Origin: Nitrospinae bacterium CG11_big_fil_rev_8_21_14_0_20_45_15
Lineage (GTDB): Bacteria; Nitrospinota; Nitrospinia; Nitrospinales; VA-1
NCBI GenBank assembly: GCA_002787235.1
Contig: PCWG01000023.1
Location: forward strand, 3,130-67,129
Direction of reading: 5' to 3'
DNA length: 64,000 nucleotides
In this document: piece after piece, positions 24,966 through 58,673 of the stretch
Layout of the letters: the number at the start of each line of letters is the position of its first letter
Position numbering within the stretch: the stretch's first letter is position 1
Position numbers and translations under genes: made by a program
The notes under the pieces: model-generated
What the model was told of the DNA's origin: nothing
Databases searched by the model: none
The model's input: only the letters and a program-made list of their open reading frames with translations

Positions 24966-25103
24966 AAAAGATGTGCGTGCTTCTTGATTTGCGATAAGTG
25001 AGCCCGGATATGAGATTGCATGGAGGAGAAGTTCCGAATCATTTGCAGGATGTCTTTGTTCTTGATGAACTTGGATATACTTTAAGAAAGGCTTGATGTA
25101 AAA

Positions 25104-26786
25104 ATGGCCACACTTTCCCGCCTAAAACGTTGGGATACTCCCTTCAGCCCGGATATGACAGATGAGGAGGTTCAACGTCTTCTCGAAGTTAAAGAAATAG
25201 CCGAAATAGACCGCGATAAATTCCCCGTCAGTACCCCCCTTGAAGGAATTCTTAAAAACGATGCTCGCACGGTGCGTTATGAAGCGGGTGATATTGTTAT
25301 ACGTGAAGGGGACTATGGTAATTCTGCATTTTTAATTCTGAGCGGAGATTTGCGTGTGGTTCTTTCCCCGGGTCTGCCTGATGAGATGCTGGGACGTAAA
25401 AAAATTCGCAAGAAAAGCTTTTTTGAAGCACTGTCTCAGCTCTGGAAAAAAAGTATTATTCCTGAAGTCCGTGATACGGAGCGCTACAAGGATCGTTCTT
25501 TACGAAAAACGAGCGATTCTGGAGTGGCTCAAGTGTTTCTGCAGGATGTTCCCGCCGTGCTGGATTCGAATAAAACGGCAGTTCTGCATCCCGGTGCATT
25601 GTTTGGGGAGCTTGCGGCATTGGGCAGATTGCCTCGAACTTCATCGGTATTTGCTGAAACTGCGGCGACGGTTTTGGAGATTCGTTGGCAGGGATTGCGG
25701 GAGTTGAGGAAATTTGATGAAGGCTGGCGGAGTGCAATTGATAAACGCTACAGAGAAAATGCGTTGAATGCCTATTTGAGTGCCACTGAGCTTTTTTCTC
25801 ATCTGGACGATACTAAGTTGCAAGCCGTGGCCGATAGTGCCCTGTTTGAGACTCATGGAAAGTTTGACTGGCATGTGACCTACAATCAAATGAAGGATAT
25901 GGACAACGCCAGCGTCATTAAGGAAGAACCCGTGATTGCTCGCGAAGGTGACTACCCGGATGGGTTGTTGATGATCCGCGCTGGCTTCGCCCGTGTCTCC
26001 GTGCAAAAGGGGAACGGACGTCAAACTTTGACGTATTTAAAAGCCGGGGATTATTACGGTGACGATGAACTTTACAGAGCCTGGAAGGGTGAAAATAATG
26101 TCACGCTCAAGGTGACTATCACCGCCCTGGGTTACGTGGACGTGTTGCGTGTTCCGTCATTTTCTATAGAAGAACACTTATTTGCTCATTGGGAAGATAA
26201 AAACAAAACCGATTTCGAGCCATCGAAAGCGAATCTTTTTGATCAGACTCTTGCCGATGGTGCTTTGCGCGAGTGGGCGGTTCAGGAGCGATTTATCAAC
26301 GGAACCCAAACGATGATGATCGATTTGGATCGTTGTGTTCGCTGTGATGATTGTGTTCGTGCCTGCTCCGACACGCATCAGGGGAATCCCCGTTTCATTC
26401 GTCATGGAAAAACATTCGATCACTGGATGGTTGCCAACGCATGTATGCATTGTGCCGATCCTGTATGTATGATCGGTTGTCCTACGGGTGCGATCCATCG
26501 CGATTTGTCGGGTGGAATGGTTATCATCAACGACGACACATGCATTGGTTGCGAAACCTGCGCCAACTCTTGTCCCTATTCGAACATCAGGATGGCTGAA
26601 ATCCGGGATGTTGATGGCCGCCCTGTTGTGGACCCGGAAAATCAGAAACCCATTATTAAAGCGACGAAATGTGATTTGTGTGCAGGGCAGAGAACCGGAC
26701 CTGCCTGTGTGTTTGCCTGCCCGCAAGCGGCTGTTAAGCGCGTGGATTTTCGAGAGGCATTTTCAGGTGCCTTTGAGGAGAGTTAA
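25104..26786 (+). CDS. Cytoplasmic cyclic-nucleotide-binding (2 domains) / 4x[4Fe-4S] ferredoxin (DmsB/NrfC/HybA-like) fusion protein
   Basis: cNMP phosphate-binding cassette FGELAALGRLPRTSSVFA at aa 167-184. The second CAP-like domain lacks the cassette. Four cluster motifs: CVRCDDCVRAC, CMHCADPVCMIGCP, CIGCETCANSCP and CDLCAGQRTGPACVFACP. No signal or Tat peptide. Confidence 0.85.
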   Translation: MATLSRLKRWDTPFSPDMTDEEVQRLLEVKEIAEIDRDKFPVSTPLEGILKNDARTVRYEAGDIVIREGDYGNSAFLILSGDLRVVLSPGLPDEMLGRKKIRKKSFFEALSQLWKKSIIPEVRDTERYKDRSLRKTSDSGVAQVFLQDVPAVLDSNKTAVLHPGALFGELAALGRLPRTSSVFAETAATVLEIRWQGLRELRKFDEGWRSAIDKRYRENALNAYLSATELFSHLDDTKLQAVADSALFETHGKFDWHVTYNQMKDMDNASVIKEEPVIAREGDYPDGLLMIRAGFARVSVQKGNGRQTLTYLKAGDYYGDDELYRAWKGENNVTLKVTITALGYVDVLRVPSFSIEEHLFAHWEDKNKTDFEPSKANLFDQTLADGALREWAVQERFINGTQTMMIDLDRCVRCDDCVRACSDTHQGNPRFIRHGKTFDHWMVANACMHCADPVCMIGCPTGAIHRDLSGGMVIINDDTCIGCETCANSCPYSNIRMAEIRDVDGRPVVDPENQKPIIKATKCDLCAGQRTGPACVFACPQAAVKRVDFREAFSGAFEES

Positions 26787-26792
26787 CAGGCT

Positions 26793-27596
26793 ATGATTCG
26801 ACTTTGGATATATATCCTGCTGGCGGTTCTGTTTTTTGTGTTTATTGGATTCTGGACGAGGCAGGCCGAAAAGTTCCTTGCCGAACCAATCCTGATATCA
26901 GGTTGGGCTTTGTTTGCTTCTGTCGCATTTCTTGCGTTGTTTTCCGTACGCAAACGCTTACCCTTTTTATCGTTGGCACCTGCTTCGCGCTGGTTTATGT
27001 TGCACACAATTGGGGGATTTTTAGCATTATCCTTATTTTGGCTTCACATGGGATCATTGTGGCCCAAGGGTTTGGGTGACGAAATCATGGCCGGATTATT
27101 TTATGGAGTCACAGTTTCGGGGATCATCGGTCTGTTTCTTGAAAAGTTGTACCCGCATTATTTGACCCGCAGTGGAGTCGAGTGTATTTACGAACGCATT
27201 CCCAATGAAATTGCAGAGATCCGGAGTATGGCGGAGGATGTCGTGCTGGAATGTGCGCGTGAAACCGGGAGCGATACTTTAGGACAACATTATCTGGAAA
27301 CGTTGCATTGGTTTTTCCAAAGGCCGCGTTTTTTTGTAAATCATGCGTTTATTGGTCAAAGTGCCCAACATTGGGTGCGTCATCAATGCCAGATTCTTGA
27401 ACGCTATCTGGATGAGAAAGAACGCGGGTACCTGAAACAAATTTTTGCTTTGGCGGATTATAAACGAAAAGTCGATTTTCATTATACCGCGCAAAGTATT
27501 TTGAAAGGCTGGCTCCTTATTCATTTGCCTATTTCTATTGGAGTGGTGGCGTTGACATTCTGGCATATTGTCATCGTTCACGTTTATTACATATAA
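26793..27596 (+). CDS. 5-TM membrane protein, candidate di-haem b-type cytochrome
   Basis: 267 aa with five hydrophobic helices. H71/H85 in TM3 and H244/H258 in TM5 are each 14 residues apart. A ~115-aa basic loop lies between TM4 and TM5. The stop overlaps the next ATG. Confidence 0.6.
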   Translation: MIRLWIYILLAVLFFVFIGFWTRQAEKFLAEPILISGWALFASVAFLALFSVRKRLPFLSLAPASRWFMLHTIGGFLALSLFWLHMGSLWPKGLGDEIMAGLFYGVTVSGIIGLFLEKLYPHYLTRSGVECIYERIPNEIAEIRSMAEDVVLECARETGSDTLGQHYLETLHWFFQRPRFFVNHAFIGQSAQHWVRHQCQILERYLDEKERGYLKQIFALADYKRKVDFHYTAQSILKGWLLIHLPISIGVVALTFWHIVIVHVYYI

Positions 27597-29521
27597 TGGC
27601 CACTAATAACCCATTTTCACACGATCAAAGCCGTTACGAGCGACCCAACTTTCCTTATCGTTGTGGTCGTTCGGTATTATGGCAAAAGCCTTGCCATGAT
27701 GGCCCGGAGTTCGATGGTTCTTGTGGGGGTGTTACCGAATGTTCGCCTGCAAAAAAAGGCGATCGTTGGGAATGCCGCCGGACCAAGATGGCAGGGGGGC
27801 CCTGTGAAGACGGTCCCGATTCTTCAGGGAAATGTTCCCGGACGCAACCGCCTTGTTCACCACGTTCCACGCTCAGGGTGATTCGAGGACGTCTTGCTAT
27901 GTTGGCGTTGGGGATCATTATAGCTTTGATTGGAGGATCGCAGGGTGTGGGCCCGAATGAAGTTGCTTTTCTTGATATTTCCGACCCCGGTCCTATTTCA
28001 AAACCGCATTCCAAGTTCACTGAGAATAAAGGTTGTCAAGCATGCCACGCGAATCATGGAAAAGGGGTTGTTGCATGGACTCAAGCTGTATTTTCTGAAA
28101 ATGACATATCAGCTCAATGTGTCGACTGCCACACTTTCGGCGGGCCAAGTTTTGTAGCGCATAATCGAACAGAGAGCAAGGATAAGAGTTTTGACAGTGT
28201 CAAAACGAAATGCACGATGTGTCACCGTGAGCATACGGGCAATGAGATCACTCGAAAGCTGACCAGCGAACAATGCAATAGTTGTCATAAAACACAATTT
28301 GAAAGCTTTGCCCGTGGTCACCCGAAATTTTCTGAGAAATACCCTTATGAGAGTAGAACCTCTATTTTCTTCGATCACGTGTCACATTTGGGCAAGCATT
28401 TTAAAAATTTAAAACATGCCGATAAGGCACCAAAATTGTGCACGGGATGCCATATCGCAACGTTTGCAAAACAAGAAGTGAAGCCCGCAGGCTTTGAAAC
28501 TTGTGAGAAATGTCATGGCAATCAAATCGGTAAAAAAGAGCTGGTTCTCTTGAGGCTTCCCGAATTCACACAAAATCTTATGGACCCGGAATTGGTTCGT
28601 GATGTTTGTGGTGGAAGCGATTCTGCCGAATCCGACGATGATTTCATGAGTGTTTCCACCGATAAGGCCTCGTTGGTTAGTGCTTACCTGTTGAACATAC
28701 CAACGGATGACCCTGAAGTTTACAATCAACCTTTGCAAAAATTTCTGGAAGGCCTTGTTGAAGAATCTTCCGGTCCTCTGGTTGAATTGATTAAGGAAAA
28801 GACAGGTCAAAAATCAATGACGGAGAAAATGCTGTTTGGTTTGAATCCTGAAGCACTCAAGCGTGCTGTTTGCGCCTGGGGGGCCAATCGAGAGTACGAT
28901 CCTCCGGCGGAGGCAATGGGTGGCTGGTATGCAGATTTGCTGGAATTGCGTTACCGACCTTCGGAACATGGCGATGCGGTTGCTAAAAGCTGGATAGAGT
29001 TTGCTATTTCGGCAGTTGAAAATACGCAAGATGAAGAAGAGATGAATCGTGCGTTGGAACTGCGCGAGCAAATCCTGTCGCCGAAAGAAGGTGTGGGCGG
29101 TTGTATCAAATGTCACAGTATTTCCAATGTGTCTATGCCAGGACAAAATCCAAAGCTGGAGGTTGCCTGGAAGTACAAGGATTCTGTGGAAAAACCGCAT
29201 ATGCGTTTTATTCATGACAGTCATATCGAAATGCTGGGGCTTGGCAGTTCCTGCTCCAATTGCCATCACCTTGACAATGAAGCCGATTATGCATCCAGCT
29301 TTAAAACCTTTGATGCCACTCGTTTCGTTGCCAACTTCAAACCGATAGAAAAGGCAAAATGCGTGAATTGCCACAATGAAGGCAAAATCAAGCAGGATTG
29401 CCAAGTCTGCCACAAGTACCACTTTAAGACGGGTTTCAAACAGTCTATGTTGGCACTCAATGAGAAAAATGAGGCTACTTTTAAAGAACGGGAGCCCGTT
29501 ATAGGGGTAAAGGAGGAATAG
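27596..29521 (+). CDS. Membrane-anchored decahaem c-type cytochrome with a cytoplasmic Cys-rich N-terminal module
   Basis: Ten CxxCH (CQACH, CVDCH, CTMCH, CNSCH, CTGCH, CEKCH, then CIKCH, CSNCH, CVNCH, CQVCH). TM helix LAMLALGIIIALIGG is preceded by RVIRGR. Eight Cys lie in aa 23-87. Confidence 0.85.
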   Translation: MATNNPFSHDQSRYERPNFPYRCGRSVLWQKPCHDGPEFDGSCGGVTECSPAKKGDRWECRRTKMAGGPCEDGPDSSGKCSRTQPPCSPRSTLRVIRGRLAMLALGIIIALIGGSQGVGPNEVAFLDISDPGPISKPHSKFTENKGCQACHANHGKGVVAWTQAVFSENDISAQCVDCHTFGGPSFVAHNRTESKDKSFDSVKTKCTMCHREHTGNEITRKLTSEQCNSCHKTQFESFARGHPKFSEKYPYESRTSIFFDHVSHLGKHFKNLKHADKAPKLCTGCHIATFAKQEVKPAGFETCEKCHGNQIGKKELVLLRLPEFTQNLMDPELVRDVCGGSDSAESDDDFMSVSTDKASLVSAYLLNIPTDDPEVYNQPLQKFLEGLVEESSGPLVELIKEKTGQKSMTEKMLFGLNPEALKRAVCAWGANREYDPPAEAMGGWYADLLELRYRPSEHGDAVAKSWIEFAISAVENTQDEEEMNRALELREQILSPKEGVGGCIKCHSISNVSMPGQNPKLEVAWKYKDSVEKPHMRFIHDSHIEMLGLGSSCSNCHHLDNEADYASSFKTFDATRFVANFKPIEKAKCVNCHNEGKIKQDCQVCHKYHFKTGFKQSMLALNEKNEATFKEREPVIGVKEE

Positions 29522-30792
29522 TGCTTAATTTTATTATCAGTCTTATCCCGCTGACTTTTCTGTTGGGGATGATCGCTTACGTATTGACTTTATTGGCCAA
29601 TAATTCACGTTTGATGGCCATAACGCAAGCTACGGTCGATCTGGAAGCGAAATTGTTAAAGGCCAAAATAGATCAGGTGGTCAATCAACAGCGTCTGGAA
29701 AATGAAAAGAAGACTTCACACTGGAGCGGATTCCGTAAATTTCAAGTCATTGACAGGGTAATGGAGACCGATGATATCTGTTCTTTTTACCTGGCTCCCC
29801 ATGACGGCAAGCGGCTTCCACCTTTCGAGCCGGGACAGTACTTGACCTTTCAGGTGCATCCAGAGGGACAGCCAAAACCTGTTACCCGTTGTTATTCTTT
29901 GTCAGACAGCCCCAATCATCCGGATAGATACCGTGTCTCTATTAAAAAAGTACCCCCGCCACCCAATGAACCTATGGTACCCCCGGGTCTGGTTTCGAAC
30001 TATTTTCACAACTCCCTCAAAGTTGACGACATCATTGATGTGAAGGCTCCGAGTGGTCATTTTCATATTGACCAGACCAAGCAAACGCCGGTTGTTTTAT
30101 TAGGAAGCGGGGTTGGCATCACGCCGGTACTGAGTATTTTGAACAGCATTGCTGAAAGTGACTCGAAACGTGAGACCTGGTTTTTTCTCGGCGTCAAAAA
30201 TCGCAGTGAACATATGATGAAGGAGCATTTGGAGGCTGTTGCCAAACAACACGAAAATATTGAGGTTAAAATATGTTACAGCCGACCCGAAGCGAGCGAT
30301 GTGGAGGGGCAGGATTATCATTATGGAGAACGCGTCTCTGTTGATTTGTTGAAACGTGTTCTTCCCTCCAATAATTATGATTATTATCTTTGCGGTCCGC
30401 CGCCCATGATCAAGTCTTTGCGAACCGATCTGGAGGCGTGGGGTGTTCCAAAAGCTAAAGTGCATTTTGAAGCTTTTGGACCAGCGACTGTCAAAAAAAA
30501 TACGGACGAAAAGCCAGCCACTACAGAGAAAACAAGTACGATCCAAGTGACTTTTGCACGAACTTCAAAGACGATGACCTGGAATTCAGCGGTCAGCTCA
30601 ATCCTGGATTTTGCCGAAGCCAATGGCATCCCCATGGAGTCAGGCTGTAGAGCCGGAAATTGCGGGACTTGTCTGGTGGCTATCAAATCGGGTGAAATTT
30701 CCTATGTGGGTGAGCCCGGTTCTACTCCAGAAGCGGGTTCCTGTCTCGCATGTATCTCAGTTCCAAAGAGTGATTTGATCGTTGATGCTTAA
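29521..30792 (+). CDS. Membrane-anchored ferredoxin-NAD(P)H reductase-family flavoprotein with a C-terminal plant-type 2Fe-2S domain
   Basis: GTG start overlapping the preceding TAG, with AAGGAGG upstream. N-terminal TM (IISLIPLTFLLGMIAYVLTLL). FAD motif RCYSLS. NAD(P) motif LLGSGVGITP. C-terminal CRAGNCGTC...CLAC. Confidence 0.85.
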   Translation: MLNFIISLIPLTFLLGMIAYVLTLLANNSRLMAITQATVDLEAKLLKAKIDQVVNQQRLENEKKTSHWSGFRKFQVIDRVMETDDICSFYLAPHDGKRLPPFEPGQYLTFQVHPEGQPKPVTRCYSLSDSPNHPDRYRVSIKKVPPPPNEPMVPPGLVSNYFHNSLKVDDIIDVKAPSGHFHIDQTKQTPVVLLGSGVGITPVLSILNSIAESDSKRETWFFLGVKNRSEHMMKEHLEAVAKQHENIEVKICYSRPEASDVEGQDYHYGERVSVDLLKRVLPSNNYDYYLCGPPPMIKSLRTDLEAWGVPKAKVHFEAFGPATVKKNTDEKPATTEKTSTIQVTFARTSKTMTWNSAVSSILDFAEANGIPMESGCRAGNCGTCLVAIKSGEISYVGEPGSTPEAGSCLACISVPKSDLIVDA

Positions 30793-33735: not shown

Positions 33736-34473
33736 GTGAAATTCAATCGCCGAAATTTTCTGAAAGCATTCTCCGCACTGGGGCTGGCTTTGCTTCCTGG
33801 CAATGGTTACGCCGTCCCCGATTATCGAAACGATAAAAATTTCCCCAAAGAATACGTTCAAAACAGAGATATCCCCGAATTCCACATTCGCAGTGCCAAT
33901 CCTTTCCTGGGTGTCGATATTGACAATTGGGGTTTGGTGGTTGGTGGAAAAGTCAAAAATAAGCTGGCTTTGGGATATGAAGATTTGTTTGGATTTAAAA
34001 CCCATTCCCAGATCTCGCGCTTGAAATGTGTCGAATGCTGGTCTGCAAAAGCAAAATGGGGAGGATTTCGTTTTGAAGAGTTGGTGGAAAGGGCCGAACC
34101 CCATCCCTCGGCAAAATACGTTCATTTGAAATCAGCCGATTCCTATTACGAAAGTTATCTGCTGGAAGAATTGCTCCGACCGCGGGTCCTGCTGGTTTTG
34201 AGTATGAATGGCGCGCCGCTTTCAAAAGATCACGGTTATCCCCTGCGTTTGATCGCTCCTTTCAAGTACGGTTACAAAAATATCAAGTACATCACGCAGA
34301 TTGATTTTGCCGACTCCCAAGGTAGGAATTACTGGTCCAATCATGGCCCCTATTCGGTGGATGGAACCATTCAACCGGGGATAGACCATCCTTTGGATTA
34401 CCATAAAAAACCGTTGCCTATCAACGGGGGAGAAGTTTTCCATCCTTTCGACAAACGCCCTGATCAGGGATGA
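33736..34473 (+). CDS. Tat-exported molybdopterin oxidoreductase, sulfite-oxidase fold (MsrP/YedY-like)
   Basis: GTG at 33736 with GGAGG 5 nt upstream. Twin-arginine signal VKFNRRNFLKAFSALGLALL. Moco-Cys region SRLKCVECWS. MNGAPLSKDHGYPLRLIAPFKYGYKNIKYI. Confidence 0.8.
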   Translation: MKFNRRNFLKAFSALGLALLPGNGYAVPDYRNDKNFPKEYVQNRDIPEFHIRSANPFLGVDIDNWGLVVGGKVKNKLALGYEDLFGFKTHSQISRLKCVECWSAKAKWGGFRFEELVERAEPHPSAKYVHLKSADSYYESYLLEELLRPRVLLVLSMNGAPLSKDHGYPLRLIAPFKYGYKNIKYITQIDFADSQGRNYWSNHGPYSVDGTIQPGIDHPLDYHKKPLPINGGEVFHPFDKRPDQG

Positions 34474-35207
34474 GACTTTTCCTGTTTGCGGCGATTGTCA
34501 TCCTTTGTTGCATTACCCTTGCTTGTGACAGCAAGGAAGAAGTGGAGCAACTCAAGGTTGTTGTTCCGTCCGGGGTGGCTGTGCCTGAAGATATGGTTTA
34601 TATCCCTGCGGGTGACTTTATAATGGGCGATCCTTCAGATCCTAAGACCCTTCAGGGCAAGACCATCCACACAGAAGCTTTTTTGATCGACCGTTACGAG
34701 ACCCGTCGAGGAAAATACGCATCCTTCAAAAGCGATTACAGCTTCGACCCTTCCAAGAAAAATTTTCCCGTCGCCAATATAGATTACGCTTCAGCTGAGG
34801 CGTATTGCCGATTCAAAGGAGGGCGACTCCCGACAGAAGCGGAGTGGGAAAAATCGGCACGCGGCATTGACGATCGTAAATGGCCCTGGCGTAATTTTTA
34901 TCAACATCCCAACAATGGATTTTCAGGATTTTTACCAGAGCCTGTAGACAAGAGGCCGGAATGGATCAGCCCTTACGGGATTTATGGCATGGGGCACAAT
35001 GTCTGGGAATGGACCTCCGACGATTACAGCTATCCCGGACAAGCCCCTGCCGAACTGGGAAAGTTTAAAGTGATACGAGGTGGTTTGACGCAGACGCATA
35101 CGACGATAAAATTCACACCGGTGTTTTTTCGTAACTGGATGGAGCCCACAGCGTCCTATCCGTTCCTGGGGTTTCGCTGTGCCCGCTCAATCAAGTCGGT
35201 CGATTAG
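34470..35207 (+). CDS. FGE-fold (SUMF1/PvdO-type) lipoprotein lacking the FGE catalytic Cys pair
   Basis: Lipobox CCITLAC. MVYIPAGDFIMG, RLPTEAEWEKSARG, GHNVWEWTSD, IRGG, LGFRCARS. ATGA overlap with the upstream gene. Confidence 0.8.
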   Translation: MRLFLFAAIVILCCITLACDSKEEVEQLKVVVPSGVAVPEDMVYIPAGDFIMGDPSDPKTLQGKTIHTEAFLIDRYETRRGKYASFKSDYSFDPSKKNFPVANIDYASAEAYCRFKGGRLPTEAEWEKSARGIDDRKWPWRNFYQHPNNGFSGFLPEPVDKRPEWISPYGIYGMGHNVWEWTSDDYSYPGQAPAELGKFKVIRGGLTQTHTTIKFTPVFFRNWMEPTASYPFLGFRCARSIKSVD

Positions 35208-45250: not shown

Positions 45251-46063
45251 ATGTCCCCCCTGCGATTTGGTTGTCACGATTTTTTAAACGCTCAACCCCT
45301 GCTCAAAAATCTTAAAAAGAGTACGTCTGCTTTGAATCTTGTCATTCAAACAGGCACACCGGGAGAGCTTGCCGACCGATTGCGGGCAGGTGAACTCGAC
45401 CTGGCAATGATCCCTTCCTACGAATATTTAAAAAATGTACGGACCTATCGACTTCTGCCCGGAGTGTGTATCGCCTCGAGAGGAGAGGTGGAGAGTGTGT
45501 TTCTAGTCACCCAAAATAAAGATTTCAAACAAATCAAGACGGTTGCCGTAGATTGCCGATCACGTACTTCCGTTGCGGTTCTTAACATTCTCTTTGGAGA
45601 TCGTTTTGACAGCGATTGGAGTCTTCGCCCCGCCGAACCCGATCTGGAAGTGATGCTGAGCGAAAGCTCAGCGGCCCTCATCATAGGCGACCCCGCATTG
45701 GAACTGGATCGTTCCAGCCCGTACTTCCGATACGATTTGAGTCAGGAATGGTTCCACCGGACAGGAAAATCTTTTGTTCATGCGGTTGTCGCTATTCGCG
45801 AAGGGGTTCTCGTCCCAAAGGAAATATCAAATTCGATTCAAAATGCGACGCAAAAAGATGCAGATTTGCTTGAAGTTATTTGCAGAAAATATGCAGAGCA
45901 GGATGAAACAAAATTCGTTCAATGCCAAAATTATCTGACTCATAAAATCAGTTACCATCTGGGTTCTGAAGAAATTGAAGGTTTGACCCAGTTCCAGAAG
46001 ATGTGTGAGAATATTGACGAGGGGATAATCCAGCAAGATTTTATCTGGGAGAATGTGGAATGA
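45251..46063 (+). CDS. mqnA: Chorismate dehydratase MqnA (futalosine menaquinone pathway)
   Basis: LRFGCHDFLNAQPLL... N-terminus and periplasmic-binding-protein-like fold pattern typical of MqnA. The start is ATG 45251 or TTG 45245. Confidence 0.75.
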   Translation: MSPLRFGCHDFLNAQPLLKNLKKSTSALNLVIQTGTPGELADRLRAGELDLAMIPSYEYLKNVRTYRLLPGVCIASRGEVESVFLVTQNKDFKQIKTVAVDCRSRTSVAVLNILFGDRFDSDWSLRPAEPDLEVMLSESSAALIIGDPALELDRSSPYFRYDLSQEWFHRTGKSFVHAVVAIREGVLVPKEISNSIQNATQKDADLLEVICRKYAEQDETKFVQCQNYLTHKISYHLGSEEIEGLTQFQKMCENIDEGIIQQDFIWENVE

Positions 46064-46746
46064 CAGAGACGACAATACTTGTGGTTGAAGACGAAGAAGA
46101 TATTCAGGAGTTGATCGTATTCAACATGAAAAAAGAAGGTTACAAGGTAGAGCGTGCCGATTCCGGGAGTGATGCCATTCGTATGGCACGTGAAATTCAT
46201 CCGGATCTGATGATACTGGATTTGATGCTACCCGGTTTGAGCGGTCTGGAAGTCTGCCAGCAAATTCGTGATAACAAAGAAATGGCCGACATGCCCATCA
46301 TTATGGTGACCGCAAAAGGAGAAGAATCCGACATTGTCGCGGGTCTTGAAATGGGTGCCGATGATTATGTGACCAAGCCCTTCAGCGTAAAAATATTATT
46401 GACTCGCGTTAAAGCCCTGTTGAGAAGAAAAAATGGAGGATCGTTGGAAGAAGAGGGGATTTTGCGGTTTCCTGATCTGGAAATCAATGTTGGCAAACAC
46501 GAAACACTGGTTTGTGGGCAACAAATCAAACTGACCCATTCAGAATTTGCTATTCTCCACGCTCTCGCTCTTCGACCCGGCTGGGTCTTTACCCGCACCC
46601 AAATCGTCAACGCTATTCGTGGAGACGATTATGCCGTCACCGATCGATCGATTGATTTTCAAATTGTCGGCTTGAGAAAAAAACTGGATACGGTTTCACA
46701 TTATATTGAGACGGTCCGCGGGGTGGGGTATCGCTTTTATGAATGA
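46060..46746 (+). CDS. OmpR/PhoB-family response regulator (no cognate kinase in the window)
   Basis: Receiver domain (VVEDEEDI, DLMILDLMLPG, VTAKG, VTKPF) plus winged helix (LTHSEFAIL...TVRGVGYRF). ATGA overlap with mqnA. Confidence 0.9.
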   Translation: MTETTILVVEDEEDIQELIVFNMKKEGYKVERADSGSDAIRMAREIHPDLMILDLMLPGLSGLEVCQQIRDNKEMADMPIIMVTAKGEESDIVAGLEMGADDYVTKPFSVKILLTRVKALLRRKNGGSLEEEGILRFPDLEINVGKHETLVCGQQIKLTHSEFAILHALALRPGWVFTRTQIVNAIRGDDYAVTDRSIDFQIVGLRKKLDTVSHYIETVRGVGYRFYE

Positions 46747-46774: not shown

Positions 46775-47467
46775 CTATTCAGGTGATGTGTTGTTTTTTA
46801 GCCACGCAAAAGAATAATGGATCCAGAGCAGGAGAGTGGCTCCCAGCAGTTCGGCCATTTCTTCGAGGGTGGAAAATATTTTGAACTGGCTCCAGGACGA
46901 AGCGTCGAGATAGTTTTCGGCTCCGAGGATTTTGGCTTGCATGGTTTCCAGACCGGCGGCCAGGGCAAAAAGGCCGACAAGCACCAGACCGGCAACGAAC
47001 AGGTGAGGGTGGGCGCGGAATTGCAGGTAATAAAAAACACTGAGAGCACCTCCCACGAGTAGGATGATGGGTGAGAAGATCAGCGTCCAGAGCAAGGCCC
47101 CACCTTCTTTGGAAACCAGAAAATAGTCGCGCAAGTTATTTCCTCCCGAGCTTTCCATGAGCCAGCGCGTCGCGGTTTCGTGGAACTGTCCCGTTTCATC
47201 GATCGACATCAATAGCATGAGTCCCGTGACCAGTAACCACCCGCGATTATAAGGCGTCTGCTTGCCTTGAAAATAGCAGTGCAGTGCCGCTATCGCCGCA
47301 AGGGTGAATTTGAAGCTGGAATACCAGGTAGGCAGATTGCCTTCCTGACCGAGGTCCACTCTTTCGCCCAATAGAGGATGGTTTGCAAACAGCAGGTATA
47401 GGGCGAGGATGAAAAAGTCGGCGCAGATGAACCCGATCAATATTTTTTTAGGCTCTATGGGGAACAT
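46775..47467 (-). CDS. Hypothetical polytopic membrane protein
   Basis: 230 aa with ~6 TM segments. Its start shares 1 nt with the stop of the upstream sulfatase-fold gene. Confidence 0.55.
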   Translation of the reverse strand: MFPIEPKKILIGFICADFFILALYLLFANHPLLGERVDLGQEGNLPTWYSSFKFTLAAIAALHCYFQGKQTPYNRGWLLVTGLMLLMSIDETGQFHETATRWLMESSGGNNLRDYFLVSKEGGALLWTLIFSPIILLVGGALSVFYYLQFRAHPHLFVAGLVLVGLFALAAGLETMQAKILGAENYLDASSWSQFKIFSTLEEMAELLGATLLLWIHYSFAWLKNNTSPE

Positions 47468-49011
47468 TATTTTTTTTCGGAGGGGGAGCGCAAATAACCT
47501 CCGGCGATCAATTCTTTGCGCATTTCCTCACTGATACCTTTTTTGTGCGATGTCCATTTCAATTTTTGCCGATCGCCCCATTCTTTGAGTATGGCTTCCA
47601 TTTTAATCACCTTCTCGGGTTGCTCTGCAAGTAAATTCCGATTTTCTTTGGGATCATTTTCGAGATCAAGCAGAAGGGCAGAGGTTTTGCCCTGCTCGTC
47701 GACTTGTTTGATGTATTTCCAACGTCTGTCCCGGACAACACGGTATTCTTCTTCGTAAGGTGTTTCTTGCAGGAAAACCATTTCGTCTCCAGCGGATCTT
47801 TTATCCTGTGCTTGTAGCAGGGATTTCCCTGGCAACCAGGGCAGAGCCGGGAATCTCAAGGCTTCCATGACAGTGGGCACCAGATCAATGGTGGAAACCA
47901 TTGCCTGAGAGCGAGCGGGAGTTTTAACAGCCGCTGATTTTGGAGGTTTGATGAGCAGTGGAATTCTTATGACGGGCTCGTAATAACGCCCGGTGTGGCC
48001 GGGGCCGGGTTTGGCAAACTGATGAGCGTAGGTTTCAAAATGCAGTTCGCCATGATCGGCCAAAAGCACGATCATGGTTTCGTCGTAAAGCCCTTTGGTT
48101 TTGAGGGATGCAAAAATTTTTCCCAGATAATCGTCTACCAATCGAATTTCACCGTCGTACAGGGCGACTGCCGGTTCCTTGAAGGATTCAGGTAACAGTC
48201 CATTGCGCCAGGCTTTTGCCAGATCGTTGGCGCAACGCAAATTGAAATCCTCATCAAAACCCTTTAATTTTTGTGGCGGCGGAATGGGCATGAACAGCGT
48301 ATCGTAGGGCGGCGGGGGATCGTAGCTTTCATGAATGTTCTGAACGTGGAGCCATACGAAAAAATTTCCCGGTTTCGATGATTCGCCCTTCTTGTTTTCA
48401 GCGGGATGTTTTTGCGACCAGGTATCGAGCCAGTCGAGAAAGGCGGTGAAACCTGCGGTATCCTCTTCCAGGTCTTTGTCTTCGTGTTCGTGACTGGCGA
48501 TCGGGATGTACTCGAAATTGGCGAATCCGCGATTCAAACCCGACTCTTCGCTCATAGCGTGGTAACCGATGAAAGCGGATGTATCGTAGTTTTTTCTGGA
48601 AAGATATTCGGTTAGAATGGGACTTTGTGGAGAGATCTCCATTCCATTATCGACAAGGCCATGTTGCAAAGGGTAAAGTCCGGTGAGCATGGAAGCATGC
48701 GAAGGTGCTGAGTTTGTCGCCACAGTGAAGGCGTTTTCAAATACCAGACTGTCTTCGGCCAGTTGGCTTATGTTGGGACTGGTTTCACGCGAGTAGCCGT
48801 AGACATTCAGGTGATCGTAGCGCAAAGTGTCGAGGGTGATGTAAATGAGATTGGGGCGAGTTTTAGACAGTGTGTCGCCGGACATGATGTTGAGGATGTA
48901 ACGGGCTTGCAGGAAAACAAAAACGGTGCCAGCCAGGACGATCAGTCCCAGAAGCCATTTTTTTTCAAGAAAGAGGTTAAAAAATTTACGCAACATGTAT
49001 TCTCTAGCCAT
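47467..49011 (-). CDS. Membrane-anchored sulfatase-fold (alkaline-phosphatase superfamily) enzyme
   Basis: N-terminal TM (WLLGLIVLAGTVFVFL). LIYITLDTLRYDHL metal site. Signature region TNSAPSHASMLTGLYP. LLADHGE. The start is 49011 or 48996. Confidence 0.85.
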   Translation of the reverse strand: MAREYMLRKFFNLFLEKKWLLGLIVLAGTVFVFLQARYILNIMSGDTLSKTRPNLIYITLDTLRYDHLNVYGYSRETSPNISQLAEDSLVFENAFTVATNSAPSHASMLTGLYPLQHGLVDNGMEISPQSPILTEYLSRKNYDTSAFIGYHAMSEESGLNRGFANFEYIPIASHEHEDKDLEEDTAGFTAFLDWLDTWSQKHPAENKKGESSKPGNFFVWLHVQNIHESYDPPPPYDTLFMPIPPPQKLKGFDEDFNLRCANDLAKAWRNGLLPESFKEPAVALYDGEIRLVDDYLGKIFASLKTKGLYDETMIVLLADHGELHFETYAHQFAKPGPGHTGRYYEPVIRIPLLIKPPKSAAVKTPARSQAMVSTIDLVPTVMEALRFPALPWLPGKSLLQAQDKRSAGDEMVFLQETPYEEEYRVVRDRRWKYIKQVDEQGKTSALLLDLENDPKENRNLLAEQPEKVIKMEAILKEWGDRQKLKWTSHKKGISEEMRKELIAGGYLRSPSEKK

Positions 49012-50524
49012 TCATTATTTGCAAGAAACTCAGCAAGAGTTTTTTGATAAAACAGCCATTCAGGATGGTTGTGACCGTATTTCCTTCGGGCAATTGTGGC
49101 GGCAGGCAATGCGGATGGCGCATTGGCTTCAGTCGCAACACCCAGTTTGGAACAAGCCGTTTGTTGTGGATATGCCCAAATCGATTGATGCCATTATAAC
49201 CCTTTTGGCGGTGCAGTTGACGGGCAATATCTATGTCCCTGTCGATCCTGAAAGCCCCCCAAAAAGGAAACTGGCAATCTATAAAACACTGGGGCCCTGC
49301 GTGACGGTGCAACGCGATTCGGGAGAAATAATATTCGACGGCGAAGTTTACAAGGTTCCTGAAGAAATTTCAGAAGAAGATTTTATTTCTATTGAATTGT
49401 CTATTCTGAAAAGTCTTGGCAAAAGAGGAACACAGGACCCACTGTATATTATCTTCACCTCTGGAACGACCGGTCAGCCCAAGGGTGTGACCATTTCCAA
49501 CGCCAATGTGGTCGATTATATCGAATGGGCGGTTACAACTTATGCGATCACAGAGCGAGAGGTGATTGGAAATCAGGCCCCTCTATTTTTTGATAACTCG
49601 ACTCTCGATTTGTATTTGATGCTCAAAACCGGAGCGACCTTGAGTTTGATTCCCAGAGAAACTTTGAGTTTCCCAAGTTTATTGGGAGAATATCTCGAAA
49701 ATGAAAAAATATCATTTCTCTTTTGGGTTCCTTCTCTGCTTGCGAATCTGGTCAAATTTGATACCTTCTCCGGGCATCATTTAGGCGCACTTGAAAAAAT
49801 TCTATTTGCTGGCGAGGCCATGCCGCTCGGTGTTTTAAAATCATTGCGGAGCTCGTTTCCCAATGCTTTGCTCTCCAATTTGTATGGCCCCACTGAGATC
49901 ACAGTGGATGCCATTTACTGGATTTTTGGTGACGAGTTGGCGACCTTGAAGGCAACTCCTCTGGGCGTTCCCTGCACCAACCATCGTATTCTTTTTTTGG
50001 ATGAGGAAGGTCAGCCCATCCGTCAATTCGATACCATTGGTGAGATATGTGTCGCGGGTGCTGGAGTGGGCCTGGGCTACTGGAATGATGCGGAACGAAG
50101 CGACCGGGTCTTTATTCAGAATCCAGAGCACCATTTGTACAACGAAAGGGTTTATAAAACGGGTGATCTGGGTTACCTTTCGGAAGCAGATGGTCTCATC
50201 TATATGGTCGGGAGAAATGATGATCAGTTCAAACATTTGGGCTATCGTATCGAATCGGGAGAAATTGAAACGGCTCTGGAGCAAATGCCCGGCATTGCGC
50301 AATCTTGTGTGATTTACGATAAAGACAAAAATGAAATTCTGGCATTCTATACCGCAGACAGCAATAGCGCAGGGCCTCCGAATCGTAAAGCGATGGCAGA
50401 GTTATTGCCGCCCTATATGTTTCCGAGACGTTTCATCTTACTGGAAAAATTTCCAACCACTGCAAACGGGAAGAAAGATCGTAGCCTTGTGTGGAACCAA
50501 TACAAGAACCAGGATCAACGGTAA
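48995..50524 (+). CDS. DltA-like adenylation enzyme (carrier-protein ligase)
   Basis: IIFTSGTTGQPKGV, GEICVAGAGVGLGYWN, YKTGDLG, GRNDDQFKHLGYRIESGEIE, NGKKDR. Start chosen at MYSLAIHYLQ by collinearity with DltA; the longest ORF begins at 48926. Confidence 0.85.
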   Translation: MYSLAIHYLQETQQEFFDKTAIQDGCDRISFGQLWRQAMRMAHWLQSQHPVWNKPFVVDMPKSIDAIITLLAVQLTGNIYVPVDPESPPKRKLAIYKTLGPCVTVQRDSGEIIFDGEVYKVPEEISEEDFISIELSILKSLGKRGTQDPLYIIFTSGTTGQPKGVTISNANVVDYIEWAVTTYAITEREVIGNQAPLFFDNSTLDLYLMLKTGATLSLIPRETLSFPSLLGEYLENEKISFLFWVPSLLANLVKFDTFSGHHLGALEKILFAGEAMPLGVLKSLRSSFPNALLSNLYGPTEITVDAIYWIFGDELATLKATPLGVPCTNHRILFLDEEGQPIRQFDTIGEICVAGAGVGLGYWNDAERSDRVFIQNPEHHLYNERVYKTGDLGYLSEADGLIYMVGRNDDQFKHLGYRIESGEIETALEQMPGIAQSCVIYDKDKNEILAFYTADSNSAGPPNRKAMAELLPPYMFPRRFILLEKFPTTANGKKDRSLVWNQYKNQDQR

Positions 50525-50539
50525 ATCGAATCAATCATC

Positions 50540-50797
50540 ATGGAATTAGATCAAATTGAGGAAAAAATCAGAGGGTTTATTGAGAGCGAATTCCCCAATT
50601 CCGGTGAAGAACTTGAAAATACAACGAATTTGCTGGAAGATTGGTTCGTCGATTCCTTTGGGATCATTAACACGCTGATGTTTTTGGAAAACGAGTTTGG
50701 GGTCAACGTGGATCGCGCCGATATCACACCGGGAAATTTCAAAAGCGTTCATACTCTTTCCCTGCTGGTACAAGGAAGGCTGTCAAACGTTAAGTAA
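50540..50797 (+). CDS. DltC-like acyl/aminoacyl carrier protein
   Basis: 85 aa. LLEDWFVDSFGIINTLMFLENEFGV, with the phosphopantetheine Ser in a DSFG context. Confidence 0.75.
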   Translation: MELDQIEEKIRGFIESEFPNSGEELENTTNLLEDWFVDSFGIINTLMFLENEFGVNVDRADITPGNFKSVHTLSLLVQGRLSNVK

Positions 50798-52512
50798 TGG
50801 CAGGATTGTTGGGCACCGGCCCAGTCACTCCGGAAGAGCAATTAAAAAATGACCGACATCACTGGGCTCCGGTCACAGCCGTCCTTCTTTTTCTAGCCGT
50901 TTTTATCTACCTGTTCACTTACGCTTCGGAAGAGCTGGATCTGCCGATGCCACAGTCTCTGGCCGAAACCTTGGGCTGGGAGCCAGTGAAAGTTTTTGAC
51001 GATGACGGCAACGTCGATAGCAGTTTGTATGTCCCTCTAACGTTTATTTACGACAATGACGACGAACGTTTCATCTTGTTTGTTGGTATTGCCGTAGCAT
51101 TTTTGCTGGTTTATTTTCTTCCCTTAAAATACAAGCGCGAATCCTTATTTGTTTCCTTTTGCGTCATCATGGGGATTCTTTATGGCACGCGTGGTCTTGC
51201 CGGGCTTGCGATGGGACACGCACTTGTCTACCTCTTCCTGCATCCCGTTTCGCGTTACCGCCTTGCCATTGCAGGATTGCCGGGATTTCTCGGAGTCATC
51301 GCCTTTGCTGAATATTCGATCCCCAATGCGAAATTATTGTTGCAGGCTCTGCTGACAGGCTTGGCAGGAGCCGTTGTCTATGTGAGTGTGGTGCGCCCCT
51401 TTTTGAACAAAGGGAAAATGGCGACTTTGTTGCAGACCCTTATTGTCCATTCGGCATTGTTCGTCACTCTGGGCGGTGCGCTGTACGAGAGGGAGACCGG
51501 CGACACTTTTGAAATTGCCCTGGGTGTCCTCTTGTTTTTATGGCATTGGGAGCGGTTGATTCTTTATCACATCGACTATAAAGATGGCAGGGTTCCAGAG
51601 GACATTTCTTTGGTGCGTTATCTGTCCATTTTCATGACGCCTGCACAGTTGGCTCATTGGACCAATGGCGTTTCCATAGCGCAGGGTTATTCATACTGCG
51701 AAGACCATTTCCTTTGCGAAGATAAAAATAAACTGGTTTTCGATGGCCTCAAATTGTGGACAGTTGCCTTGATCTATCTGGTTTTCGGGAACTGGTTGTT
51801 GCATCATTTTCTGAATTCTGTCAGTCGTTGGGGTGGCGTGGAATTTTTCTTGCGGAACCGATTGCTGGCCTGTCATTTTGTGGAAGGCGGCGCGGTTTCA
51901 ACTTCAACGGTTTTGCTCACCACCTTGGCCGACCTCTTGAGATGGACCACACTATGGGGCGGTGTGGTGCACTTCAAGGTAGGATTGTGGCGGATTTGTG
52001 GGTATCGTGTCGATCCGTATTTTAACTATCCCTGGATATCGACCAATCTGGTTGTGTTGTGGTCGCGCCTGACCTTCCATTACCGCGAATTTTTAGTTCG
52101 CGCTTTTTATTATCCCGTGTTCTTCAAATGTTTCAAAAAGAGCCCGCATCTACGAATTTTATGCGCCACGCTTTCTGCCGCGACCGTGGGGAACCTGGTT
52201 TGGGGCCACATGACCGAGGGTGTTTTTTATAATGGAGTCGCATGGGAAAATATAGTTTTTGAATTTAAAAGATGGCCCTATTTTTTGCTGTTGGGTCTGG
52301 GCATCACCGTCAGTCAGTTCTGGCTCATGCACAAAAAAAAGAGTGCTCGCAAGCCCTGGACTTTTGATCGCAGGATAGGACTGGACATACTTGCCACCTA
52401 TATCACCCTCCAGTTTTACGCATTGATCCACGTTTTCATGCATCCCTGTGCAGAAGGTTCCCTGTGGGACCATTTCCGGCTGTTTTTGATAGGGCTGGGT
52501 GGCTCGGCCTGA
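50797..52512 (+). CDS. MBOAT-like membrane-bound O-acyltransferase (DltB/AlgI-like)
   Basis: 571 aa, polytopic. FNYPWISTNLVVLWSRLTFHYREFLVRAFYYPVFF resembles the AlgI/DltB region around the invariant His (FN.P....S...FW.RWH.SL..W.RDY.Y.P). The start overlaps the carrier-protein stop. Confidence 0.6.
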   Translation: MAGLLGTGPVTPEEQLKNDRHHWAPVTAVLLFLAVFIYLFTYASEELDLPMPQSLAETLGWEPVKVFDDDGNVDSSLYVPLTFIYDNDDERFILFVGIAVAFLLVYFLPLKYKRESLFVSFCVIMGILYGTRGLAGLAMGHALVYLFLHPVSRYRLAIAGLPGFLGVIAFAEYSIPNAKLLLQALLTGLAGAVVYVSVVRPFLNKGKMATLLQTLIVHSALFVTLGGALYERETGDTFEIALGVLLFLWHWERLILYHIDYKDGRVPEDISLVRYLSIFMTPAQLAHWTNGVSIAQGYSYCEDHFLCEDKNKLVFDGLKLWTVALIYLVFGNWLLHHFLNSVSRWGGVEFFLRNRLLACHFVEGGAVSTSTVLLTTLADLLRWTTLWGGVVHFKVGLWRICGYRVDPYFNYPWISTNLVVLWSRLTFHYREFLVRAFYYPVFFKCFKKSPHLRILCATLSAATVGNLVWGHMTEGVFYNGVAWENIVFEFKRWPYFLLLGLGITVSQFWLMHKKKSARKPWTFDRRIGLDILATYITLQFYALIHVFMHPCAEGSLWDHFRLFLIGLGGSA

Positions 52513-57737: not shown

Positions 57738-58673
57738 TTATAATTCTTTTCCAGAAGAAGGTGTGGATTCTTTCCCGAATATACTTTCAAAAAGTGTGAG
57801 CTTGTCCTTGGCGCATCGGAAACCGACATCCATTTTTTTAGAGAGCGGGTTCATTTTTTCGCGGTAGGAAGCGCGTGCTTTTTTAGCGACGACATCTGCG
57901 TACACGCTGCCATTGAAATGACCCACACCCATAAAGGACAATCCTCTGAGCACGACATACTTTTTACCATAGTCCTTGCTCTCATACTGGTTGTGGGGAT
58001 AGGGTAGATAATAATCCCAGACCCATTCCCAGACGTTCCCAACCATATCTTCAGTGCCAAACGGACTGGAGCTTGCCGGATAACTGCCAACCGGCTTGAG
58101 TCCTTTTCCGGTTTTTAATTTTACAGATCGGCTGAGATTGGCGGCATCAAAAGAGAACTCGTTGCCCCAGGGATAGATCCAACCGTCATAACCTCTGGCC
58201 GCCTTTTCCCATTCCGCTTCTCTTGGCAATCGCTTTCCAGCCCATTCGGCATAAGCCGTCGCATCGAAGAAACTGACATGGGTGACGGGTAAGTTTCCTG
58301 CGCCGTCTGGGTACTTTTGATAAGGTTTCCAGTGAGGTGGAGGGTGCCGGCCTGTGGCTTGACAGAAAATATAATATTGCTGATTTGTGACTTCGTACTT
58401 GTCTATATAAAAGGCTTTAAGGTATATCTTATGTTGTGGTGACTCATCAGCAAACCAGGGTTTTTGCAATCCCAGACCTAAAGCTTGATTTTCAGTGTCG
58501 GTTTCGTCGGTTCCCATAATGAATTTTCCAGCGGGTACCAATACCATTCCCGGCGGAGGAGGCTCAAGCATACAAGCAGATTGGCTTGTCAGCATCAATG
58601 TTAACAAGAATATTTTAAATTTCCAGGACATCGCCCGTTTCATGAATTTTTCTCCCCAAGAATTTCTGCTCAT
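57738..58673 (-). CDS. FGE-fold (SUMF1-type) lipoprotein lacking the FGE catalytic Cys pair
   Basis: Lipoprotein signal ...FLLTLMLTSQSAC. MVLVPAGKFIMG, RLPREAEWEKAARG, GNVWEWVWD, VGFRCAKD. The true start is probably an internal Met (58643 or 58631). Confidence 0.8.
   Translation of the reverse strand: MSRNSWGEKFMKRAMSWKFKIFLLTLMLTSQSACMLEPPPPGMVLVPAGKFIMGTDETDTENQALGLGLQKPWFADESPQHKIYLKAFYIDKYEVTNQQYYIFCQATGRHPPPHWKPYQKYPDGAGNLPVTHVSFFDATAYAEWAGKRLPREAEWEKAARGYDGWIYPWGNEFSFDAANLSRSVKLKTGKGLKPVGSYPASSSPFGTEDMVGNVWEWVWDYYLPYPHNQYESKDYGKKYVVLRGLSFMGVGHFNGSVYADVVAKKARASYREKMNPLSKKMDVGFRCAKDKLTLFESIFGKESTPSSGKEL

Follow-up and report, generated by a model that had tools for sequence, protein, structure and literature searches.

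Dlt-type aminoacylation is the textbook Gram-positive route by which cells adjust the charge of their surface and withstand cationic peptides. The mechanism, in which an MBOAT (membrane-bound O-acyltransferase) protein hands its cargo to a tyrosine shuttle and then to an SGNH enzyme, was solved only recently. A diderm system with partly similar components is AlmEFG of Vibrio cholerae, wherein a DltA-like adenylase and a DltC-like carrier put glycine on lipid A. AlmG is an LpxL-type acyltransferase of the cytoplasmic face rather than an MBOAT protein, and the system is not known to have a phosphatase-superfamily partner. Here we describe a five-gene locus at positions 46775-52512 of a 64,000-nucleotide stretch of DNA (the window, meaning the whole stretch that was analysed) from Nitrospinae bacterium CG11_big_fil_rev_8_21_14_0_20_45_15 (assembly GCA_002787235.1, contig PCWG01000023.1, positions 3,130 to 67,129). 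The products of 230, 514 and 85 amino acids are 100% identical to proteins recorded for this organism. It belongs to the Nitrospinota, which are the main marine nitrite oxidisers. The locus is a real and uncharacterised variant of the Dlt-type pathway and not a Dlt operon, and it falls outside the Dlt families, PF03062 and the type I sulfatases. Its features are as follows.

46775..47467, minus strand: TM230, a 230-amino-acid polytopic membrane protein with about six transmembrane (TM) helices and no Pfam or NCBIfam match
47467..48996, minus strand: membrane-anchored enzyme of the alkaline phosphatase superfamily with a sulfatase fold (PF00884); the open reading frame (ORF) could extend to an ATG at 49011 (514 amino acids, 47467-49011)
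48995..50524, plus strand: stand-alone adenylation enzyme of the nonribosomal peptide synthetase (NRPS)/DltA type, 509 amino acids (TIGR01733); a longer ORF runs from a GTG at 48926
50540..50797, plus strand: carrier protein, 85 amino acids, with Ser39 in V-D-S-F-G; matched by generic acyl carrier protein (ACP) models
50797..52512, plus strand: divergent MBOAT-fold (DltB-like) membrane protein, 571 amino acids, assigned from an AlphaFold model and profile-profile homology

A gap of 15 nucleotides separates the adenylase and carrier genes. The carrier gene and the gene for the 571-amino-acid protein overlap by 1 nucleotide, as do the sulfatase-like and TM230 genes. An earlier interpretation of this DNA made without database searches, hereafter the sequence-only reading, had proposed these five ORFs and junctions; all are found in the window, with two start codons revised. 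It was also right about the gene order A-C-B, the lack of DltD and the diderm host.

The likeness to the Dlt pathway is that a stand-alone adenylase would load a small dedicated carrier and a carrier-adjacent MBOAT-fold protein would take the cargo, with DltB as the best structural match. However, there are several differences. The MBOAT-like protein goes unseen by PF03062, and its candidate catalytic His lies two residues after the canonical position. The SGNH protein DltD, DltX and the FxYxxF motif are all absent, and the specificity code of the adenylase differs from that of DltA and lacks a characteristic Cys. The A-C-B genes are joined by genes for two predicted extracytoplasmic partners, one an enzyme of the alkaline phosphatase superfamily and the other a polytopic membrane protein. 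The host is a diderm and has no teichoic acids, whereas Dlt is a system of Firmicutes.

With PatA/PatB, AlgI/AlgJ-X and WssH/WssI the locus shares an MBOAT fold and the presumed passage of an acyl group over the inner membrane to a periplasmic acceptor. The motifs NFNxP, FWxR, YxP and GxxWH are common to the PatA/AlgI-type proteins and the 571-amino-acid protein. However, those systems use acetyl-CoA and involve neither carrier nor adenylase. The FxYxxF acyl-shuttle motif resides on DltX or is fused to the C-terminus of PatA/AlgI-type MBOATs, where it sits on two extra helices, and there is always an SGNH partner (PMC12148441). Neither the fused motif nor the SGNH partner is present in the module described here.

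The sulfatase-like enzyme resembles LtaS, EptA/MCR, OpgB, BcsG and NPP/PafA in having a sulfatase/alkaline phosphatase fold that is tethered to the membrane and, in its predicted orientation, faces the periplasm, and in a putative nucleophile of the Ser/Thr type rather than formylglycine. It has a single TM helix, whereas LtaS and EptA carry a fused five-helix domain. No description of the module, its MBOAT-like family or its partners was found in the literature on MBOATs, DltB homologues, Nitrospina or DltA. The resemblance to Dlt is already present in automated annotation names and is hence not new.

Conserved linkage and cassette types

A scan with one genome per species yielded 45 loci that encode the family of the 571-amino-acid protein. 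They occur in Nitrospinota, Gammaproteobacteria (including Methylococcales), Zetaproteobacteria, Magnetococcales, Opitutales, Pirellulaceae, Myxococcota, Elusimicrobiota and Acidobacteriota. In 40 of these loci the family member has a carrier gene beside it, and 40 have an adenylase gene there; the others are either cut short or only very distantly related.

The cassette in the window is of type A, which is characterized by the adenylase specificity code DNLSLALVDK and by the presence of the sulfatase-like gene and TM230. Both of the latter genes are found in 16 of the 17 other type A loci, and the exception is cut 357 nucleotides upstream of the adenylase gene. There are five arrangements of this type: the divergent one seen in the window, A-C-B with the sulfatase-like and TM230 genes behind it, C-B with a reversed A and then the pair, A and the pair followed by C-B, and a convergent form. 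The five-gene linkage is kept in Nitrospinota, Gammaproteobacteria, Magnetococcales and Opitutales, and two reverse look-ups that began from orthologues of the sulfatase-like enzyme arrived at the same module. The flanking genes in the window have housekeeping functions (MqnA-like, a response regulator, HU and MetH), and the flanks vary between genomes. Because the linkage persists across arrangements and lineages, the reverse look-ups agree and the flanks are unrelated and variable, the five genes are best regarded as one functional unit. Thus, the assignment of the leftward pair to the rightward triad, which the sequence-only reading had made from one locus, is upheld by neighbourhood conservation. 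The occurrence of this gene set is also far beyond chance, given that every ORF has many full-length homologues and that the linkage is kept across phyla.

Type B cassettes carry an adenylase that is a C-A didomain protein (code DVWSIVGTVK), a radical SAM enzyme and a Cys/Met-type pyridoxal phosphate (PLP) enzyme, and they often lie beside type A in Nitrospina. The Nitrospina representatives consist of a 572-amino-acid MBOAT-like protein, a carrier, the PLP enzyme, the radical SAM enzyme and the didomain adenylase, and this content suggests that the cargo is a modified amino acid. A type B paralogue is located directly beside the first cassette in loci L002 (9747-15974) and L005 (9753-15978), and also in L009, L027, L029 and L039.

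In type C cassettes, the adenylase has no alpha-amino-binding Asp and is accompanied by a TauD-family dioxygenase; some also encode TM230-like and spermidine-synthase-like membrane proteins. In the type C loci L017, L018, L025, L026, L028 and L041, the TM230-like proteins are sometimes in tandem and there is also a very large secreted repeat protein.

A distant MBOAT-like family of about 480 amino acids is found in soil metagenomes. Its representatives (L054-L133, from soil and peat contigs) have no Pfam match, carry the motif FWNRYYYYFKELL with a Tyr in the region of the catalytic His, are accompanied by an 85-amino-acid carrier, and often occur with methyltransferase-like genes. The order adenylase, MBOAT-like protein, carrier is seen in 37 of 45 metagenome loci of this family. 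Because this family also shows such an order, there appears to be a whole Pfam-invisible MBOAT-like superfamily tied to carrier proteins. The window locus is one branch of this large carrier-linked family, a point that the sequence-only reading had missed.

The adenylase and its carrier

The adenylase matches the amino-acid adenylation model TIGR01733 with an E-value of 1e-89 and 301 bits, just under the cut-off of 317. The models for DltA fare less well, with 292 bits against a cut-off of 476 for the subfamily model PRK04813 and 275 against 560 for the equivalog model TIGR01734. Its closest relatives in the PDB are the LgrA modules (6e-107), and DltA itself (3e7w) is found at 8.6e-61. Thus, the first rightward gene encodes a DltA-like adenylating enzyme, as had been proposed, and not a DltA equivalog. 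The motifs FFDNS (A4, containing the alpha-amino-binding Asp of FDxS) and NGKKDR (A10, containing the catalytic Lys) align with those of LgrA and DltA. The NRPS-type adenylation core keeps the equivalents of both Asp235 and Lys517.

Ten specificity-pocket positions were read off conserved motifs. The resulting code, DNLSLALVDK, is identical in 18 of 18 adenylase orthologues, whose overall identity is 47-76%, and it is also carried by the adenylase of Methylomagnum ishizawai. In the same alignment the code of two annotated DltA proteins is DLMSLCTVAK, with which five of the ten positions are shared. Overall identity to these two proteins is 27-29%. The pocket framework LFxGE and STPS/VPS is common to both enzymes. 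However, Ala stands in place of the hallmark Cys of the DltA code, a residue linked to D-Ala selectivity. Because the alpha-amino-binding Asp is kept and the code is invariant despite low overall identity, the predicted substrate is one specific alpha-amino acid. It is probably small or polar and is not nameable from sequence. We attempted to name it from the code, and the result was not decisive: five of ten positions agree with DltA and about five of ten with the codes for Ser and Gly. The comparison of the pocket with DltA thus agrees with the earlier opinion that the substrate is not readable from sequence. Automated annotation by JGI and UniProt names the adenylase 'D-alanine--poly(phosphoribitol) ligase subunit 1'.

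The carrier matches the Pfam PP-binding model at 0.0034, which is below the gathering threshold, and several ACP models at 1e-5 to 1e-9. The DltC equivalog model gives 16.9 bits against a cut-off of 52.35. The predicted phosphopantetheine attachment site, Ser39 in VDSFG, is kept in 32 of the 32 carrier homologues that neighbour members of the 571-amino-acid family, which agrees with the earlier description of an 85-amino-acid carrier with a Ser site in DSFG. NCBI labels the protein as an acyl carrier protein. A weak match to a model named 'ACP for OlsHI' (ornithine lipid) was judged to be unrelated, as that pathway employs a GH3-like enzyme.

The MBOAT-like protein

An AlphaFold (AF2) model of the 571-amino-acid protein, made with 28 homologues as input, has a predicted local distance difference test (pLDDT) score of 87.8 and a predicted template modelling (pTM) score of 0.87. 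When this model was compared to the PDB with Foldseek, every one of the top 12 matches was an MBOAT. The list is headed by DltB (E 1.9e-6, target-normalised TM-score 0.63), which is followed by HHAT, LPCAT3, DGAT1, MBOAT7 and ACAT1, with non-MBOAT matches beginning at E 0.26. Profile-profile comparison with hhalign used seven annotated DltB/AlgI-like MBOAT proteins from annotated plasmids as its reference. The narrow family alignment (A1) reached a probability of 33% (E 4.6e-4). An alignment widened with distant relatives (A3) reached 97.6% (E 3e-12) over 276 columns. These relatives came from an exhaustive HMMER search, in which the family profile picked up 860 representatives at 50% identity. 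The family profile gave no match at E<=10 against all PDB chains, and none of ten distant relatives that were scanned against Pfam for a bridge to PF03062 gave a match.

The core motifs that align with canonical MBOATs are G-x-x-[DH]-x-x-x-G...G-[FY], [NY]-F-N-x-P, F/L-W-x-R, Y-x-P and G-x-x-W-H. Because the predicted fold, the profile-profile homology and these shared motifs agree, we regard the protein as an MBOAT-superfamily homologue that is most like DltB. Within its clade, H392, W422, R424, H428, P440 and N466 are invariant and H471 is nearly so. His392, present in 39 of 44 sequences, aligns with the residue that follows G-Y-S of the canonical 'GYSD' and lies 36 residues before His428. 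MBOATs have another conserved polar residue, which can be Asn, Asp or His, about 35-47 residues upstream of the catalytic His, and the position of His392 falls within this range. His471 aligns with the His of the canonical GLWHG. Compared to DltB, the protein is about 150 amino acids longer overall, and about 120 extra residues are located at the N-terminus.

The segment F437-x-Y439-x-x-F442 fits the pattern FxYxxF and was considered as an acyl shuttle. It was rejected because it corresponds to the canonical core segment 'YLYIPL' and is not C-terminal. Automated labels on some homologues read 'MBOAT family protein', and one is 'DltB, MBOAT superfamily'. In long-read metagenome-assembled genomes of Opitutales/Moanabacter the MBOAT-like gene is split into at least two ORFs (L032 8001-10220, L038 8001-9730 and L045 1446-4464), and these could be frameshift errors or pseudogenes.

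The sulfatase-fold enzyme and TM230

The sulfatase-like enzyme matches PF00884 (Sulfatase) at 1.4e-42 over 299 of 301 positions, with an N-terminal match to PF01663 at 9.4e-18 and a further match to SGSH_C. It has one N-terminal TM helix in the N-in orientation, preceded by four K/R residues, and its catalytic domain is therefore predicted to be periplasmic. This agrees with the sequence-only reading, in which the protein was a TM-anchored enzyme of the sulfatase fold. The accompanying likeness to LtaS, EptA and OpgB was not sustained. Models for LtaS and EptA match in fragments only, with 24-34 bits against cut-offs of 500-970, and the closest sequence relatives in the PDB are 4upi and 4upl, of the arylsulfatase/phosphonate-monoester-hydrolase (PMH) family. 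The term 'transferase' in that reading was a guess.

All of the 17 neighbours carry the nucleophile motif T-V-A-T-N-S101-x-P-S-H (here S-A-P-S-H) unchanged, and 50 of the 54 orthologue clusters have SxPxH. The putative metal ligands D61 and D319-H320 are invariant. The type I sulfatase motif C/S-x-P-x-R is absent, with His replacing Arg, and the aligned sulfate-binding Lys positions, as read from the alignment with 4upi, are not Lys. Ser or Thr together with His at the positions of S/T-x-P-S-H is the pattern of phosphoryl-transfer enzymes of the NPP/PafA type. The NPP motif T-K-T-F-P-N-H-Y-S-x-V-T-G-L-Y-P-E-S-H-G resembles T-N-S-x-P-S-H-x-S-x-L-T-G-L-Y-P-x-x-H-G of this enzyme. Because an invariant Ser-x-Pro-Ser-His stands in place of C/S-x-P-x-R, the enzyme is probably not a sulfatase and probably acts on a phosphoester, either as a hydrolase or as a transferase. 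To our knowledge, no member of the S/T-x-P-S-H clade has been characterized.

There are hundreds of metagenomic relatives annotated as 'arylsulfatase A-like' (P0332-P0397) that carry W-T-L-P-S-H, with Thr as the nucleophile and His in place of Arg. These appear to be an uncharacterised non-sulfatase clade within the Pfam Sulfatase family. Two ORFs with an FGE-sulfatase domain (PF03781) are also located in the window, at 34470-35207 on the plus strand and 57738-58673 on the minus strand. The formylglycine-generating enzyme (FGE) acts on the Cys of CxPxR, so both ORFs are probably unrelated to the S-x-P-S-H enzyme.

TM230 gave no match in Pfam and NCBIfam scans even at E=10. Its AF2 model has a pLDDT of 83.6 and shows about six TM helices, as had been noted earlier, and a fold search of the PDB with this model gave no match (best E 0.46). 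Conservation was assessed from 22 homologues and alignment A4. The invariant polar residues are E42, N44-P-T-W-Y-S-S51, D90-E91-x4-H96-E97, E174 and E202-E203-x2-E206. By the positive-inside rule these residues would face the periplasm, and they resemble a pocket that could bind a cation or a metal. A C-terminal H-Y-x-Y sequence was considered as a Tyr shuttle like that of DltX. This idea was rejected because the C-terminus is cytoplasmic by the same rule, and also because the motif is absent from the TM230-like proteins of other cassettes.

Proposed pathway and alternative explanations

We consider it somewhat probable that the locus is a self-contained, five-gene, Dlt-like module that delivers an amino acid via a carrier and the MBOAT-like protein to an envelope acceptor in the periplasm. 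In the cytoplasmic half of this pathway, which is well supported, the adenylase would activate one alpha-amino acid and attach it as a thioester to the phosphopantetheine arm on Ser39 of the carrier. The MBOAT-like protein, to judge from its fold, homology and obligate linkage, would dock the loaded carrier and move the aminoacyl group through a membrane tunnel to a hydroxyl acceptor in the periplasm. Linkage and topology suggest that the sulfatase-like enzyme, with its putative Ser nucleophile, works together with TM230 on this same envelope molecule. Their most likely task would be to build or modify an acceptor group that is linked through a phosphoester, and they would fill the position held in Firmicutes by the SGNH protein DltD and the microprotein DltX. 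Perhaps they instead form an extracytoplasmic relay that replaces DltD and DltX. The acceptor is not encoded nearby, and candidates for it are lipopolysaccharide, periplasmic glucans or other glycans, and the head groups of lipids.

A number of observations weigh against this interpretation. PF03062 does not match the 571-amino-acid protein even at E=10, and there is no other Pfam or NCBIfam match. Thus, the MBOAT assignment of the sequence-only reading holds by fold and by profile comparison and fails by the domain model that was named there as its refutation test. The canonical catalytic His column is occupied by Thr426, with Tyr or Phe in relatives, and the clade-invariant His428 is located two residues downstream of that column; in the wider family, 30 of the 44 members have Tyr at the His428 position. 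For these reasons, catalysis in this family may differ or be absent. The C-terminus of the protein (...HFRLFLIGLGGSA) lacks the FxYxxF motif. A dltD or dltX analogue, which the sequence-only reading had proposed to search for, was looked for: no SGNH partner such as DltD, PatB or AlgJ is found among the recurrent neighbour clusters of the 45 loci or the annotated window genes, and no small ORF with FxYxxF, as in DltX, was found after the 571-amino-acid gene. Because this motif, a DltX-like ORF and an SGNH partner are all missing, the known MBOAT relay mechanism cannot operate here as described. There are TM230-like ORFs in 23 of the 45 loci, some of them without a sulfatase-like gene, and in the complete genome of the cultured methanotroph Methylomagnum ishizawai the triad stands alone at its site, with neither a sulfatase-like gene nor TM230 adjacent. 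The periplasmic pair may therefore be accessory. Finally, no genes for the synthesis of an acceptor or polymer were seen flanking the module, and the radical SAM, PLP and TauD-type tailoring enzymes of the sister cassettes hint at small-molecule or lipid products.

This last point bears on an alternative that we consider unlikely and nevertheless take seriously, in which the product of the module is a lipid or small molecule and not a decorated polymer. Examples would be a head group of the aminoacyl or lipo-amino-acid kind, or a natural product that is secreted or bound to the membrane. The MBOAT-like protein would then be an esterifying enzyme that off-loads an intermediate from the carrier, and the phosphatase-like enzyme would tailor or release the product. 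Besides the C-A didomain adenylase, radical SAM, Cys/Met-type PLP and TauD dioxygenase enzymes of sister cassettes, there are the methyltransferases of the 480-amino-acid family. The adenylases without the alpha-amino-binding Asp indicate that the cargo is not always an amino acid, several eukaryotic MBOATs that match the model (LPCAT3, DGAT1, MBOAT7) acylate lipids, and polymer-synthesis genes are missing beside the module. However, DltB, which is the best structural match and the only known carrier-dependent MBOAT, serves a polymer. The window cassette also has no tailoring enzymes, and its accessory enzyme is predicted to be periplasmic and is membrane-anchored, like envelope-modifying enzymes. 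The sequence-only reading had foreseen a decorated envelope polymer (lipopolysaccharide, glucan or exopolysaccharide) as the product. This is a conjecture, and the natural-product-style tailoring enzymes of the sister cassettes keep the lipid or small-molecule alternative live. A different proposal is that the 571-amino-acid protein has an MBOAT fold and serves as a scaffold, channel or transporter, with the chemistry performed by TM230 or the phosphatase-like enzyme. The Thr, Tyr or Phe at the canonical His column, the failure of His428 to persist across the wider superfamily, and the resemblance of TM230's invariant carboxylates and His to a catalytic or metal site are all compatible with such a role. 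We judge it improbable, given that His392, His428 and Asn466 are invariant in the 571-amino-acid clade and His471 nearly so, that His392 aligns with the second polar residue of MBOATs and His471 with the GLWHG His, and that the strict carrier adjacency with its 1-nucleotide overlap indicates direct use of the thioester.

We regard a conventional dlt operon, with D-alanylation of a teichoic-acid-like polymer as its function, as very improbable. The automated names for the adenylase and for one MBOAT-like homologue suggest it, DltA models are among the best NCBIfam matches, and half of the code positions equal those of DltA. However, the scores for the DltA equivalog (275 against 560 bits) and DltC (16.9 against 52) are far too low, identity to DltA is 27-29% and the Cys is gone from the code. 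In addition, there is no DltD or DltX, PF03062 is unmatched and the host phylum is diderm. We give even less credence to the view that the divergent gene pairs are unrelated neighbours and that an FGE-like protein of the window matures the leftward enzyme, which would then be a simple sulfatase. Pfam does place the enzyme in the Sulfatase family, and the window does hold the two FGE-sulfatase-domain ORFs. This view is contradicted by the linkage to the triad in five arrangements and four lineages and by both reverse look-ups. Moreover, the motif is S-x-P-S-H rather than C/S-x-P-x-R, FGE acts on Cys, and the residues at the sulfate-binding positions are not Lys.

The pathway that we favour, delivery of an amino acid by the carrier and the MBOAT-like protein to a periplasmic envelope acceptor, has a bolder form that we put forward tentatively and regard as rather unlikely. 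In this form, the locus would represent an unrecognised diderm envelope-modification pathway, wherein a carrier-fed MBOAT-like protein with a displaced His/Tyr site passes an amino acid to a periplasmic assembly of an alkaline-phosphatase-superfamily Ser enzyme and a new acidic-pocket membrane protein, which together replace the SGNH/DltX relay.

Implications

The module keeps the cytoplasmic logic of Dlt, swaps every extracytoplasmic part and appears to shift the catalytic residue of the MBOAT protein, which would point to another route of acyl delivery outside the cell. If the bolder form of the pathway is true, then chemistry like that of teichoic acids, namely the decoration of a phospho-alcohol with an aminoacyl group, would exist in a Gram-negative envelope, or an enzyme of the alkaline phosphatase fold would have a role in an acyl relay. 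In that case, the MBOAT-like superfamily would also be a marker for numerous acylation systems still to be discovered in Nitrospinota, in soils rich in Acidobacteriota, in methanotrophs and in Verrucomicrobiota. The large family represented by the 860 HMMER matches has been missed by current domain libraries, and the members examined are linked to an adenylase and a carrier. Such a modification of envelopes or lipids in Nitrospinota, methanotrophs and Verrucomicrobiota would matter for the chemistry of their surfaces and for lipid biomarkers. Because Methylomagnum ishizawai is cultured and has the core triad with the same specificity code, the question is testable.

Gene boundaries, expression signals and neighbouring genes

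The adenylase starts at ATG 48995 and not at GTG 48926, because its orthologues align from that Met and the database record holds the 509-amino-acid product. The start of the sulfatase-like gene is probably the second Met, at 48996, since this residue matches the N-terminus of the closest orthologue. With both revised starts, the divergent start codons would share a single CATG (48994-48997) and there would be zero intergenic DNA, such that both promoters would have to sit inside the opposing gene. At other orthologous loci the spacer between the divergent sulfatase-like and adenylase genes is 70-180 nucleotides, and the closest relative (L001) has the same shared-CATG layout as the window. 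Promoter and terminator scans of the locus gave no matches above shuffled expectation. Sigma-70-like matches are located at 48650-48679 on the plus strand and 49477-49448 on the minus strand, and they are not above chance.

An OmpR-type response regulator gene (46060-46746, plus strand) has no adjacent histidine kinase gene, overlaps the MqnA-like menaquinone gene by 4 nucleotides and ends 28 nucleotides before the stop codon of the convergent TM230 gene. It was considered as a member of the module and rejected, as it is common only to the closest relative, L001.

Elsewhere in the window, there is a multihaem cytochrome cluster at 20195-30792 on the plus strand that encodes c554-like, doubled-CXXCH and MtrC/MtrF-like proteins. 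The same cluster holds a 4Fe-4S protein that binds cyclic nucleotide monophosphate and a FAD/NAD/2Fe-2S reductase, and it may be a module for extracytoplasmic electron transfer.

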